A stretch of 63,800 bases of DNA, filler included, from Octopus bimaculoides (taxonomy: Eukaryota): the NCBI RefSeq assembly GCF_001194135.2. It is 6 parts of 6 records of this genome, joined end to end, with 100 filler letters (N's around TTAATTAATTAA, not from the genome) between each part and the next. Parts side by side here need not be neighbours in the genome. Positions count along the whole stretch, not along the records: positions 19,850 to 36,408 come from NC_069005.1; positions 36,509 to 46,198 come from NC_068984.1; 4 more parts are not named here. One strand, 5' to 3'. Shown one piece after another: positions 25,666 to 43,563 of the stretch. The translations under genes and the position numbers were made by a program. Every line of letters starts with the position of its first letter. Position 1 is the first letter of the stretch. The notes under the pieces are model-generated. The model was not told where the DNA came from, did not search any database, and worked only from the letters and a program-made list of their open reading frames with translations.

Positions 25666-25815
25666 AAAGGCAGAAAATGGAGAAATATCGATAACAACAA
25701 TTGACTTACGTCAATTATTAATTATTAACTCAAAACAAATAGACTGTTTTGAATTAATAAATAATAATTGATGTAAGTCAATTGTTGTTATCGATATTTT
25801 TTCATTTTATGCCTT
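25666..25815. repeat. Fold-back palindrome: arms about 72 bp, 7-nt loop
   Basis: Left arm aaaggcagaaaatggagaaatatcgataacaacaattgacttacgtcaattatt...caaaaca. Right arm tgttttg...aataattgatgtaagtcaattgttgttatcgatattttttcattttatgcctt. Confidence 0.9.
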
Positions 25816-26466
25816 CTTTAAATGTTGATTCTTGATAAACTCATGTTTATCCTTGTCTTTAGCTATAATTCATGCGCATAATATGCTTTCATATGTTTGC
25901 TCATGGTTAAACATAGGTATTATGCCTCTAGTGTAATGGATACTTCTATCCTTTAGACGGTTATTTCAACCTCTAACTCAGTTGAACTCATATATATATA
26001 TATATATTAAATTCAAATTACGATGAACGTAAACAAACAAACGAAGTTTGCTTTTAGAAGCGTTGAGATGTCTTAGAAAGTTTAAAGTGATTTTAAATTC
26101 TCAATCGTAGGATAATGCTAGTAATATAATCTGAACAGGATAAGCTACCCCTATTTTGCAGAAAAAAGTGTTGGCGGCCACACATACACATACACACACA
26201 CACACACACACACACATACACACACACACAAAGGATATGAGGCGTTTAGTTCACTGGTGATCTAAATGAGTAGGTACGCTAAGTGCTATAATTGGTCATC
26301 CATTAGGTTCCAAGTTCACAGCTGAGAGTGGAGCTAGGGATCTGTATTAGACTCCCATGTTAACAGGTAGATATTATATTAGAGCAAAAAGGACAACAAA
26401 AACCAAAGCAGGACGAGTATCTCAAGTCATTTACAAATAATTTAATTGGGGTAAGGTGAATTTGGA

Positions 26467-26542
26467 GTCTTACAGCTGTTTCTGGGATACCCCAAGTGAT
26501 AGGTTAGCATATCCACACACTTTGTTTATCATCATCAGAGAC
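26467..26542 (-). ncRNA. Type I hammerhead motif, left arm (intact core)
   Basis: The minus strand reads gtct CTGATGA tgata...aagtg...cactt gggg tatccca GAAA cagctg TA agac. Stem I is gtct/agac and helix III ACAGCTGT is palindromic. The 5' strand of stem II is partly decayed. Confidence 0.7.
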
Positions 26543-27005
26543 AAGAAAGTTCTTGACAGGGAAATTTACAGTTTATAAGGAATAAAATAGAAGAGTAAAG
26601 AGTAAACGTAGATAGAAGAATACATGCAGGAGAATAAGGTTCATAGTTCAGCTTTTCCCAGAGTGTATGGAAATTGGTCCGTACTTCCATGAAAGTATAG
26701 GCCCTTAGGTATAACCTTAGGTAAATCTAGGCAGTATTTTGGATTAACCACTTAATCCATTACTTCAACATGAACGCATCATTCAAAATACTGCCTGGAT
26801 TTACCTGAGATTATACCTAAGGGCCTATACCTTCATGGAAGTATGGAACAAACTCCATACCCTCTGGAAAAAGATGAATTATGAACTTTATTCTCCTGTC
26901 TATATTCTTCTACTGTATTCTATCTACTTTTACTCTCTATTCTTCTATTTTATTCTTTATAAACAGTGAATTTCCCTGTCTAGAACCTTCATACATACTC
27001 ACCTT

Positions 27006-27081
27006 GTCTCTGATTGTGGGATATCCAGTGTACGGACATGCTAGCCTATCACTTGGAATATCCCAGAAACAGCTGTAAGAC
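27006..27081 (+). ncRNA. Type I hammerhead motif, right arm (intact stems, mutated core)
   Basis: gtct CTGATTG tgggatat...atatccca GAAA cagctg TA agac. Stem II is an 8-bp perfect pair; the core has TG in place of GA. Confidence 0.65.
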
Positions 27082-28589
27082 TCCAAATTCACCTTACCCT
27101 AATTAAATTATTCTAAATGACTTGAGATACTTGTCCTGCCTTGGTTTTATTGTCCTTTCCCTCTAATATAATATAATATAATATAATATAATATAATATA
27201 TATATATATATGTGATATACATTGTCATTTTTAAATAAATTTTTTCTCTTGTTTATGTAAACATTGAAATAAAAAAAAAAAGAAAACCCTCNNNNNNNNN
27301 NNNNNNNNNNNNNNNNNNNNNNNNNNNNNNNNNNNNNNNNNNNNNNNNNNNNNNNNNNNNNNNNNNNNNNNNNNNNNNNNNNNNNNNNNNNNNNNNNNNN
27401 NNNNNNNNNNNNNNNNNNNNNNNNNNNNNNNNNNNNNNNNNNNNNNNNNNNNNNNNNNNNNNNNNNNNNNNNNNNNNNNNNNNNNNNNNNNNAACTACTA
27501 AAAGTTTTTAGGAGGTTAGCTTTGAGAGTTGCATCCCCTTGCGATAGGTAAAAATGTGCTTATTATAGTAGTTTGACTTCTGGAGTCCCTCTTAGCGTGA
27601 GGCGTTATTGTATAGTAATGCCCTTATATAAATTAAATATATCTATAGGGAAAAATGATGGGTTTTTTTCCCTTATGAGGTTTTTCATGCTAACTACTTG
27701 ATAAATTCTTATAAAGTCTTTATCCTATTATTGAATTACTATAAAGCAGTATCCATTTTTATGCATGTATGTGTGAGTGTGAATGTATCTACATAAATAG
27801 ACAGACAGATAGATAGATAGATAGATAGATAGATAGATAGATAGATAGATAGACAACCCTGTTTGATGTTGTCTAAATTCCAATGGATGAAAATTGTTTT
27901 GTAGCCTTAGAAACTGGCTCTTTCTCCATTGATGAGAAATTAACAAAAATACTACCAAGAACCATTCATCCATTTGTCCAGCTGACTGGAAACACTGGTG
28001 TGACTCAGACTATACCAGTGGCACCTGTTGTCAACACACATTCTCTAAATGAAGTAGATTATTCCCCACAGATAGAATCTAGAAGTGAAAAGCATATACA
28101 TGTTCAACTTGGCTGAAATGTGTTAAGAAGAAACCTGTTATTATTTTCCTTCTTGCTGTTTTGCATGGTTTTAATAATGTTATGTTATATCATTTTATGT
28201 ATATATGTATATATGTATGTATGTATATATGTATGTATGTATTCATTTACTTGTTTCAGTCATTTGACTGTGGCCATGTTGGAGCACCGCCTTAAAGGGT
28301 TTTAGTTGAAGAAATTGACCCCAGAATTTATTCCTTGTAATCACACCACTTATTCTATCGGTCTCTTTTGCTGAACTGTTACGTTATGGGGACATAAACT
28401 CACCAGCATCAGTTGTCAAGCAATAGTAGGGGGACAAACGCACACACACACACACACACATACATCAATATATACATACATATATATACACGAGGGGCTA
28501 TAGTAGAATACACTTGCCTAAGATGCCATGCAGTGGGACTGAATCCGGAACCATTTAGTTGGGAAGCAATCTTCTTACCACACAGCCAT

Positions 28590-41141: not shown

Positions 41142-41746
41142 GTCATTTGAAGCACTTATTCTACCGTTGAACAAATATTTCAGTTCACATTTAGAAAAGG
41201 TACCGGGTTTTAACGAAGATTTAGCAAAATCATTCTTATTATGTAACCTTAGGTCAACTCCCAAGAAGCAGACCTGTAGCAGCTCAGTAATCCGTCATTC
41301 GACTTCGAGAGATCCACATATCTATTGTTCCACATATCCTTTACATTTACTTAAGATTATACTGCATATTCTGATAAATTCTAGATACCTGTATGGAAAG
41401 CTACTTGGAGAATCTAATTGTGCTACTGCTGAATTACCTCTAGTGTAACCTGTATTGTTTGTGTACTTGGATGTGTTATGGGCATTAATTACAGTTTCTC
41501 TAGATTTTGGCGTGGTAAACTTTTATTGTTAATGTATTTAATGATATATATATATATATATATATATATATAGGTAAATGATAGGATTGCTTCAATTTTT
41601 CAGGGTAGTCTGAAGTATCCAAGCAACCAGGGGATGTTTAAATCCGGAGGCACTCTTAAGAATTACTTGTGTGGGTACCGTCTTCGTTAGAGGGTATCCA
41701 AAGGCAGGTAATTTATTGTTTAAACCGTAGTTTATAATTATATTTA

Positions 41747-41908
41747 TGTGGAGAATGGAGCAACAAAATACAAGAAGAAGCAATTCGGTTGGGCTAGTTA
41801 GCCATTGTTTAATTATGTGGAGATTATGTAATCTCCACATAATTAAACAATGGCTAACTAGCCCAACCGAATTGCTTCTTCTTGTATTTTGTTGCTCCAT
41901 TCTCCACA
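41747..41908. repeat. Perfect palindrome: 80-bp arms, 2-nt loop (TG at 41827-41828), abutting a long (CA)n
   Basis: I checked 41747-41826 base by base; it is the exact reverse complement of 41829-41908. Confidence 0.95.
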
Positions 41909-42374
41909 CACACACACACACACACACACACACACACACACACACACACACACACACACACACACACACACACACACACACACACACACACACACACACA
42001 CACACACACACACACACACATATATATATATATATGTATTATGTATATATAAATCAAAAGGATGTGTTATAACCAACAATCCAACACACCTCCATCATCA
42101 GCTGCTCCATGGATATCATTATGGATTCAATCCGGCGGTGTCAACAGCACTAAAAGAAGTGCTCTTTGGGAACAAAAACACACACACAAAAAAACCCCAA
42201 AACAAACAACTTCCAAGCACATTTACTCTATGTACAACAACATTCAATCAAATATAGGAAAAATTAATCACTAACTTTAAAATTAAACTACGGCAAGAAA
42301 CACATAAATCTATGTACATCTGTATTGTTATTAATAGTAAACCTACAATACATACATATATATATATATCTTCT

Positions 42375-42870
42375 TTCGAGGCATCATCTTGTCAGGTTGA
42401 TTGCTCGGGCTAGCCTGACTACCTCTCTCCATCCCTCCCGATCTTCCATTAGTGTTTTCAGGTCTTCAACTTGGCATCCAACATCTTCTGTAAGCTGTTG
42501 TATATACGTCTTCTGTGATCTTCCATCCGCTGTGACACCATGACTTGGTGTCCACAGCAACACATTACTCACAAGTTCATCCTTACTTTTCCAACAATGG
42601 CCAGCAAACCTCAATCCCCGTTCTTGGAGTGTTGATGAGAAAGTTGGTACATTCCTATATAACCGTTGTTTTGTTGGATGGTCGTTCCAAGAGATGTCGA
42701 GCACTACACGTAACATTCTGGTGCAGGCACCGTCCAGCATACACCTGAGTCTCTTGGTGAGAGTTCAAGTCGGAGATCCATACACAATCACAGATTCAAC
42801 AACTGCTCTGAAGAACTGTCTCTTCAATTTATCTGGAAGGGTTGACTTAAATATTGTTCTAAGATCGTTT
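42375..42870 (-). mobile_element. RTE-clade LINE 3' fragment (different subfamily)
   Basis: The minus ORF has TRMLRVVLDISWNDHPTKQRLY...LRFAGHCW...LLWTPSHG...GRSQKTYIQQL. Confidence 0.8.
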
Positions 42871-43270
42871 CTATAGCTGCCCAAGCCTTAGCAACGTGAG
42901 ATTTAATATCTTTTTCAGTTAATTATGATTTTATTCAAAATTTTTCCCCCTATATATATNNNNNNNNNNNNNNNNNNNNNNNNNNNNNNNNNNNNNNNNN
43001 NNNNNNNNNNNNNNNNNNNNNNNNNNNNNNNNNNNNNNNNNNNNNNNNNNNNNNNNNNNNNNNNNNNNNNNNNNNNNNNNNNNNNNNNNNNNNNNNNNNN
43101 NNNNNNNNNNNNNNNNNNNNNNNNNNNNNNNNNNNNNNNNNNNNNNNNNNNNNNNNNNNNNNNNNNNNNNNNNNNNNNNNNNNNNNNNNNNNNNNNNNNN
43201 NNNNNNNNNNNNNNNNNNNNNNNNNNNNNNNNNNNNNNNNNNNNNTATATATATATATATATATATATTT

Positions 43271-43563
43271 AAATAATACATTTCTAAATCTTTCAGAGAG
43301 ATTTAAGCAGTAGTGATGCGATAAAGTAGTTGTATGCTGTGAACTTAATGTGACAGTCCCATGAAGGGAATAATACTACTGCTATTTAGCCTTAGGAAGG
43401 AGCACCACTTCCTGTCGGCCTTGACACATTTCCTGTGTCGTTATGTTTACTACTAAATAACAGTAGTATTATTCCCTTCATGGGACTGTCACATTAAGTT
43501 GCAACATACAACTACTTTATCGCATCACTACTGCAATCTGAGAGATTTAGAAATGTATTATTT
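43271..43563. mobile_element. About 295-bp inverted-repeat element (arms 43271-43389 and 43453-43563)
   Basis: gcagtagtgatgcgataaagtagttgtatg...gtgacagtcccatgaagggaataatactactg is mirrored on the right. The left flank is (TA)n. Confidence 0.88.

Follow-up and report, generated by a model that had tools for sequence, protein, structure and literature searches.

Palindromes in Octopus bimaculoides DNA are head-to-head 3' ends of Penelope-like elements, probably primed from both ends of the target

We analysed a window of 63,800 nucleotides from Octopus bimaculoides (the whole stretch of DNA under study, six joined parts of assembly GCF_001194135.2) which contains five palindromes, hereafter E1, E2, E3, E4 and E5, at 25.7, 26.4, 29.2, 41.7 and 43.3 kb respectively. 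These palindromes are dead, 5'-truncated insertions of Penelope-like elements (PLEs), each consisting of two head-to-head 3' ends. We consider it likely that each of them is a single insertion whose two arms were primed from opposite sides of the cut target, each at its own fixed start point and presumably on the same RNA. The original prediction, which was made from the sequence alone, had located the five inverted repeats, and self-alignment recovered all of them (identity of 87% for E1, 80% for E2, 86% for E3, 99% for E4 and 79% for E5), while inverted matches at E<1e-10 were found in none of 30 dinucleotide shuffles of the window. The contact with a microsatellite which had been claimed for each palindrome was found for all five. 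The boundaries given at that time were incomplete: each insertion runs 85-175 nt past its palindrome on one side, as a tail carried by one arm (about 175 nt in E1, 140 nt in E2, 128 nt in E3, 175 nt in E4 and an atypical 85 nt in E5).

This one-sided tail turned out to be a rule. For each of the five repeat families to which the arms belong (see below), 40 candidates were scored and 30 loci fetched, and we took a census of the tail, with trimmed references, in the 114 distinct loci of the E1 to E4 families (of 120 fetched, 6 were duplicates; the four copies in the window are counted). The outer end is tailed in 46 copies and tail-less in 68. An inverted tail lies at most 1.65 kb upstream in 29 of the 68 tail-less copies and in none of the 46 tailed ones (Fisher P 1.9e-8), and a cross-family control gave 1/462. 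Exactly one tail is present in 33 of the 34 two-armed copies and two tails in none of them; one copy is ambiguous, and one has its second arm cut by a contig end. If the arms chose their ends independently at the 46:68 ratio, one tail would be expected in about 48% of the pairs. Six longer two-armed copies (L175, L181, L185, L189, L202, L220) have one tail each too. In 11 copies the inverted part consists of tail only, and a 2.35-kb tail-less copy of the E3 family (L182), truncated inside the endonuclease, is likewise capped by an inverted tail. A microsatellite adjoins the tail-less end in 64 of 66 copies, as against 310 of 2158 random positions, and most tail ends adjoin one as well. In most palindromes of the E5 family one end lies near -50 and the other near +3 (as judged by eye, and with exceptions), which is the same rule with a shorter tail.

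The inner ends of the arms could be compared in 30 of the 34 two-armed copies. The other four were left out: L006 has three arms and an insertion, L044 is too long, the tail of L051 is ambiguous and L068 is cut by a contig end. The tail-less arm reaches inward more than 15 nt farther than its partner in 11 copies, the tailed arm is the longer one in 9, and the two agree within 15 nt in 10. Partner arms nevertheless resemble each other: over 40 copies, 73 non-majority letters are common to both partners, where comparison with other copies would predict 27.7 (Wilcoxon P 3.7e-5), and 28 copies lie above the average. Overlaps of at least 4 nt were seen at 11 of 26 real junctions, compared with 45 of 231 synthetic ones. 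The positions of the inner ends are themselves uneven. In the E3 family several of them lie about 208 nt from the end (L002, L006, L007, L022), at a GTTAAC palindrome, and there are similar hotspots at 68-85 nt in the E1 family and at 360-440 nt in the E2 family. Five near-symmetric copies have a tail-less arm which is longer by 6-12 nt.

We propose the following route. It would begin at the two recurring family positions at which the outer ends lie, the tail end and the tail-less end, both placed in TA or CA microsatellites. A PLE protein may then nick and extend both target strands, as was observed in vitro for another PLE, the Poseidon element of the anole lizard (PAc), for which the available text of PMC11167929 describes two reverse transcriptase (RT) start sites that define the tail and a hammerhead which is dispensable for insertion in vitro. 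Priming would take place at the tail end from one side of the target and at the inner site from the other. As there is no RNase H, the RNA would survive, and the sequence which lies upstream of the inner site could be copied twice. The two arms stop independently of each other. A tail-primed copy stopping within the tail would leave a single arm with an inverted piece of tail, and one passing the inner site would leave a palindrome. Finally, annealing or end joining would connect the two cDNA 3' ends, in many cases leaving a short overlap, a filler or a small fold-back at the junction. We slightly favour the broader view that endonuclease-positive (EN+) PLEs, and the retrozymes which they mobilise, normally integrate by such twin priming, one RNA being primed at two fixed RT start sites.

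The main rival, which we hold to be unlikely although it fits the genomic data equally well, is a hairpin intermediate in which both arms reach the tail end (by snap-back or by self-priming on antisense RNA) and from which the endonuclease trims the tail of either arm at integration. It accounts for the single tail, for the fact that either arm can be the longer one, for the tail-only inversions and for the shared variants, and it has published counterparts in the endonuclease-mediated resolution put forward in the accessible part of Craig et al. (10.1101/2021.04.23.441226) and in the self-priming on an antisense template put forward in that of PMC3846280. However, trimming needs an additional cut made exactly once, both types of end sit in microsatellites like target-primed ends, and the PLE tested in vitro has RT start sites at both tail ends and extends both target strands (as far as the available text of PMC11167929 goes). 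The original prediction was a simpler snap-back, in which one target-primed cDNA truncates, folds back and copies itself into the second arm. It suits the 9 copies with a longer tailed arm, a few exact ties such as E4, the variants shared between arms and the small fold-backs seen at the inner ends of L002, L006 and L022. Yet it offers no reason for the copy to halt at a fixed inner site, and the arms of E2 (by 46 nt) and E5 (by 61 nt) are clearly non-nested. A self-copy cannot hold sequence which is absent from its template, and therefore neither the 11 copies with a tail-less arm longer by more than 15 nt nor the 11 tail-only inversions are self-copies, L182 being the plainest example. As a general route this snap-back is improbable, and it survives for a subset of copies only. 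We regard as still more doubtful the meeting at one site of two separate insertions, or of two cDNAs which a dimeric complex made from different RNAs. A dimer is indeed predicted for the tested PLE protein (in the part of PMC11167929 at hand), and some arms, for example L133, L139 and L091, resemble their partner no more than they resemble other copies, but the non-majority letters common to partner arms are in general 2.6 times as many as those shared with other copies, and the two-tailed and no-tail pairs which such meetings predict number 0 and at most 1 of 34. Almost no weight is left for DNA transposons of the MITE type (miniature inverted-repeat transposable elements) or for assembly artefacts at microsatellites and gaps. 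In favour of an artefact, E1 and E5 adjoin assembly gaps, and the arms of E4 are 100% identical to each other, with a centre that no independent contig among the rows listed bridges by 31 letters on both sides, so that the assembly may have contributed to this identity. Against it, the arms differ by 10-20% in the four other elements and the tail is one-sided in all five. As to MITEs, which the original prediction had named as the outcome that would overturn it, arm lengths vary, most copies are single-armed and the arms continue into RT or GIY-YIG DNA; the freely varying distances between inverted partners rule them out.

Several observations weigh against priming from both target ends as we describe it. 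In genomic products alone, twin priming and a hairpin intermediate that loses the tail of either arm cannot be told apart. The in vitro support comes from an element of the Poseidon clade with a tail of 30-40 nt, not from the octopus families. Among the tail-less copies, 38 of 68 show no inverted tail within 1.65 kb, some of these tails being farther out or the region gapped. The samples are the 30 best-scoring loci of each family and are thus biased toward likeness with the window copies. No target-site duplication is resolvable in the 22 copies with both ends: the flanks, which are unstable microsatellites, match over a mean of 9.2 nt, compared with 9.8 nt in swapped pairs. Overlaps at the junctions show no overall shift relative to 240 synthetic junctions (Mann-Whitney P 0.36). 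In 7 of the 40 copies the sharing of letters between partner arms falls below the average, and gene conversion or a common subfamily can also explain such sharing. Lastly, the 10 near-symmetric junctions among the 30, together with several small fold-backs, indicate that snap-back does occur locally.

The Penelope-like origin which had been proposed from the sequence is borne out. In four families (E1 to E4) a GIY-YIG-like endonuclease lies upstream of the arm, and in E4 an RT as well, contiguous with the 3' end; moreover the family hammerheads have a palindromic helix III and the targets are microsatellites. In the E4 family the GIY-YIG-like frame is found about 600 nt upstream in 6 of 28 loci, and in L151 and L152 the RT-like and GIY-YIG-like frames continue unbroken into the arm. 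The endonuclease is linked to the arm at 3 loci of the E2 family, at 2 of E3 (L163, L182) and at 1 of E1 (L221). A cysteine motif C-x-C...C...C precedes the GIY-YIG-like stretch in L151, L152, L158 and L163. A cysteine-rich linker directly ahead of GIY-YIG is one criterion for the Neptune and Nematis clades of PLEs, next to the position in an RT tree. The RT part of the E4 family has 36-38% identity to proteins of 577-734 residues. Two of these proteins carry what we take to be RT motifs, a cysteine-rich linker and a GIY-YIG-like end. The endonuclease of the E4 family adjoins GIY-YIG clusters in a protein atlas (score 0.96), the family being found on 31% of the members of one cluster. Pfam named neither the RT nor most of the endonuclease frames; its one GIY-YIG match, on the E2 frame, is below cut-off. 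Asparagine-rich linkers lie between RT and endonuclease in the E4 parent (L151:1281-2840) and in the E3 parent (L163:3280-4270). The window copies E1 to E5 are themselves without any open reading frame (ORF). The E5 family is built differently: its tandem unit measures about 345 nt and contains a clean type I hammerhead (6-bp helix I, palindromic CATG loop), a neighbour on the same strand is present in 6 of 30 loci, and no ORF was seen in the fetched loci, where an autonomous parent was sought. Judged by its unit, tandem and hammerhead sequence, it resembles a non-LTR retrozyme (a retrozyme lacking long terminal repeats), a type of element with tandem units of 150-450 nt.

The five palindromes had been described as members of one family, and in this respect the description has to be changed: pairwise comparison of the elements gives five unrelated families. 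E1 to E3 have in common only short AT-rich stretches (E 0.006 and 0.019), and beyond such stretches and a GAAA-CAGCTG motif nothing alignable is common to the elements. The similar outer motif noted in three palindromes does exist, as a CTCCATT-type end of E1, E3 and E4, while E4 is otherwise unlike the two others. Each arm is the 3' end of its own high-copy repeat, whose copies have a sharp common 3' end and variable truncation points upstream; first-look searches with the arms gave 528 (E1), 1341 (E2), 496 (E3), 599 (E4) and 2027 (E5) candidates in the genome. E5 had been thought the weakest member, and it is instead the one with most of these candidates, 13 of its 30 loci having an inverted partner. 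No further copies of the five families were found elsewhere in the window. The expectation that the turn points would vary on a shared 3' end was confirmed, with spans of 150-472, 329-1590, 233-879, 152-558 and 232-562 nt in the five families. The junctions vary between copies, even in the E2 cluster with spans of 780-850 nt, where one pair of junctions at a similar position is not identical. We also considered a palindrome spreading as a unit, which would share one junction among many copies; we rejected this, as the junctions differ. On the reading which we favour, the palindromes are by-products and not a class which spreads in palindromic form.

The original prediction also placed a hammerhead ribozyme on each strand of some elements. 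No intact hammerhead is present in any of the five. The GAAA-CAGCTG-TH half of the motif is indeed in both arms of E2 and of E3, whereas CTGANGA, claimed along with it, is not in both arms of either. The right arm of E2 has kept helices I-III around a core changed at positions 8 and 9 (CTGATTG), and its left arm has the core with a decayed helix II. In E3 neither arm reaches the family core, situated about 150 nt from the end; the sequence CTGAAGA in the left arm belongs to loop II, where it is a minority form of CTAAAGA. E1, E4 and E5 end before the hammerhead, which occupies 139-95 nt from the end in the E4 family. A strict hammerhead descriptor had no match on either strand of the window (3 in 20 shuffles), and a relaxed one had 2, at chance level and outside the elements. 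An Rfam scan of the window returned 101 matches at E<=1, mostly microsatellites and hairpins against microRNA models, none of them a hammerhead and none at the gathering score. When the arm motifs were folded, no hammerhead was the minimum-energy structure, but the two family controls behaved in the same way, one of them being cut at the wrong place. The single-arm hammerhead tails reported elsewhere in the window correspond neither to a further family copy nor to a strict descriptor match. At the level of the families the descriptor matched 4 of 30 E2, 8 of 28 E3 and 17 of 28 E4 loci, totals which include copies too short for the motif; the E1-family core is visible in the alignment only. Hammerheads of PLEs with a palindromic helix III, including a variant with a 2-bp helix I, are described in the accessible part of PMC4209133. 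A repeat resembling a short interspersed element, on the minus strand at 307, 13617, 16387, 32095 and 33622 of the window, mimics the hammerhead core (CTGAGGA-CTGGT-GAAAC) without its helices.

The coordinates of the arms are collected in the table.

Table. Arms of the five palindromic insertions, in window positions
Feature	Positions	Strand	Remarks
E1 tail-less arm	25666..25747	-	about 82 nt, 3' end of E1-family PLE; abuts (TA)n and an assembly gap; ends before the family hammerhead
E1 tailed arm	25746..25990	+	about 70 nt of body and family tail 25816-25990; terminates at (TA)n
E2 tailed arm	26230..26742	-	body 26742-26371 and tail about 26370-26230; terminates at (CA)n; decayed hammerhead 26538-26471
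E2 tail-less arm	26749..27165	+	extends about 46 nt farther inward than its partner; remnant of a hammerhead at 27010-27077; terminates at (TAATA)n/(TA)n
E3 tail-less arm	29241..29360	-	family hammerhead reduced to its 3' half (GAAA-CAGCTG-TC, 29323-29312); next to (TA)n/(CATA)n
E3 tailed arm	29356..29602	+	body with half hammerhead 29389-29400; tail about 29475-29602
E4 tailed arm	41572..41832	-	about 86 nt of body and tail 41746-41572; terminates at (TA)n; ends before the family hammerhead
E4 tail-less arm	41823..41908	+	identical to the other arm; abuts (CA)n; junction on a 10-nt near-palindrome of family sequence
E5 left arm	43271..43450	-	180 nt of the about 345-nt hammerhead tandem unit; abuts (TA)n and a gap; without hammerhead
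E5 right arm	43453..43660	+	61 nt shorter inward; about 85 nt into the next unit; ends where the hammerhead core would begin

At 43637-43660 the right arm of E5 links pre-hammerhead sequence straight to cleavage-site sequence, as if the core were deleted. The window is not a single locus, since linkers join in it pieces from different contigs of the genome (G000): bases 1-19749 map to contig C21, E1 to E3 to C25, and E4 and E5 to C4. The linkers, of 100 bases each (an N run, TTAATTAA, an N run), lie at 19750-19849, 36409-36508, 46199-46298, 53436-53535 and 61954-62053. Four sequencing runs searched with E1-E2 and with E4 gave fragmented contigs, mostly of other family copies, and few partial RNA reads, which demonstrate neither expression nor the exact junctions. 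E4 with its tail (41575-41905) matched no contig of a related organism, B (run X12), at 97% likeness, and E1/E2 matched many at 93%; the E4 family may therefore be young, a comparison which the filter and the unequal thresholds make weak. Between E1 and E2, at 26014-26170, lies a short repeat of very high copy number (summed contig depth of 3-6 x 10^5 in two runs), with RNA reads on both strands, many of which end at 26143. An inverted repeat at 24205-24417, outside the five families, has arms with telomere-like (TAACCC)n / (TTAGGG)n runs, a short spacer and a GC-rich flank. The window further contains, after E5, what we take to be the remnant of a LINE-like (long interspersed element) repeat with endonuclease- and RT-like pieces (45377-46250), a Walker-A exon presumably of a DnaB/Twinkle-like helicase (632-964) and pieces of a presumed hAT-like transposase (62260-63580).

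Priming from both ends of the target is reportedly known from LINE-1 (L1), for which Ostertag and Kazazian are said to have described twin priming in 2001. As in L1, defined in this respect in the accessible part of PMC2246262, both target ends would prime in the octopus families, mostly on one RNA; unlike in L1, the inner copy of the PLE starts at a set position of the family, and the outer copy often runs beyond this point, which duplicates a stretch and yields a palindrome; there is no poly(A) tail. PAc resembles them in its two RT start sites defining the tail, in having both strands cut and extended and in its AT-rich targets (PMC11167929, available text), and differs in belonging to another clade and in its far shorter tail. 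The main text of that paper, as far as it is available, derives from the RT start sites neither the inverted arrangement nor the one-tail rule. We found no paper applying twin priming to PLEs in a search which covered subscription journals thinly and did not extend to Figs S1 and S2 of PMC11167929; in the available portions of PMC3649969 and PMC2246262 the term refers to L1.

The original prediction knew of no description of such a class in cephalopods, but an inverted 5'-truncated copy with a one-sided tail is already in print, as can be read in the consulted parts of PMC3846280 and in the legend of Fig. 2 of Craig et al. The former, in its accessible part, reports an inverted truncated pseudo-long terminal repeat (pLTR) with a one-sided tail in Adineta (Pen2a/Pen2). 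The latter, within the same limits, treats the inverted pLTR and tail as general for PLEs and notes Naiad families in cephalopods. The likeness to Adineta and to EN+ PLEs, as these sources portray them, extends to the head-to-head arms, the strong 5' truncation, the tail at a single end, the junction palindromes, the TA microsatellite targets, the pLTR hammerhead, the order of RT, cysteine-motif linker and GIY-YIG, and the N-rich coding inserts. In contrast, the octopus tails measure about 125-175 nt in the four coding families instead of the 30-40 nt given there, the window copies are without any coding DNA and no target-site duplication is readable. In the length of its unit (about 345 nt), its tandem arrangement, its type I hammerhead and its lack of a visible ORF, the E5 family is like the non-LTR retrozymes of PMC7229834 (in its available part), and these retrozymes are derived from PLE pLTRs in the accessible text of a preprint (10.64898/2026.07.22.740005). 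It is unlike them in having only partial tandems (6 of 30 loci) and many head-to-head copies. The latter resemble insertions of PLEs, as would be expected if a PLE protein mobilises the unit. The window elements are thus ordinary PLE and retrozyme stumps, and what sets them apart from the published cases is the length of the tail and the number of tail-only inversions.

The palindromes provide a countable record of PLE integration, a process of which the cited papers, in their available parts, call the tandem and inverted structure and the formation of the tail unresolved. If twin priming is indeed the route, then the extent of each of two cDNAs would account for tail, inverted pLTR, palindromes and single-armed copies alike. 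The octopus tails of 125-175 nt make the tail-only class easily seen and the rule countable, and the one-tail rule, the non-nested arms and the tail-only inversions yield sharp predictions for the existing in vitro system. With a two-armed share among the sampled top copies of about 30% (34/114) to 43% (13/30), and about 5,000 first-look candidates over the five families, such hairpins are likely numerous in this genome. Those transcribed in introns could be a source of double-stranded RNA in the octopus.

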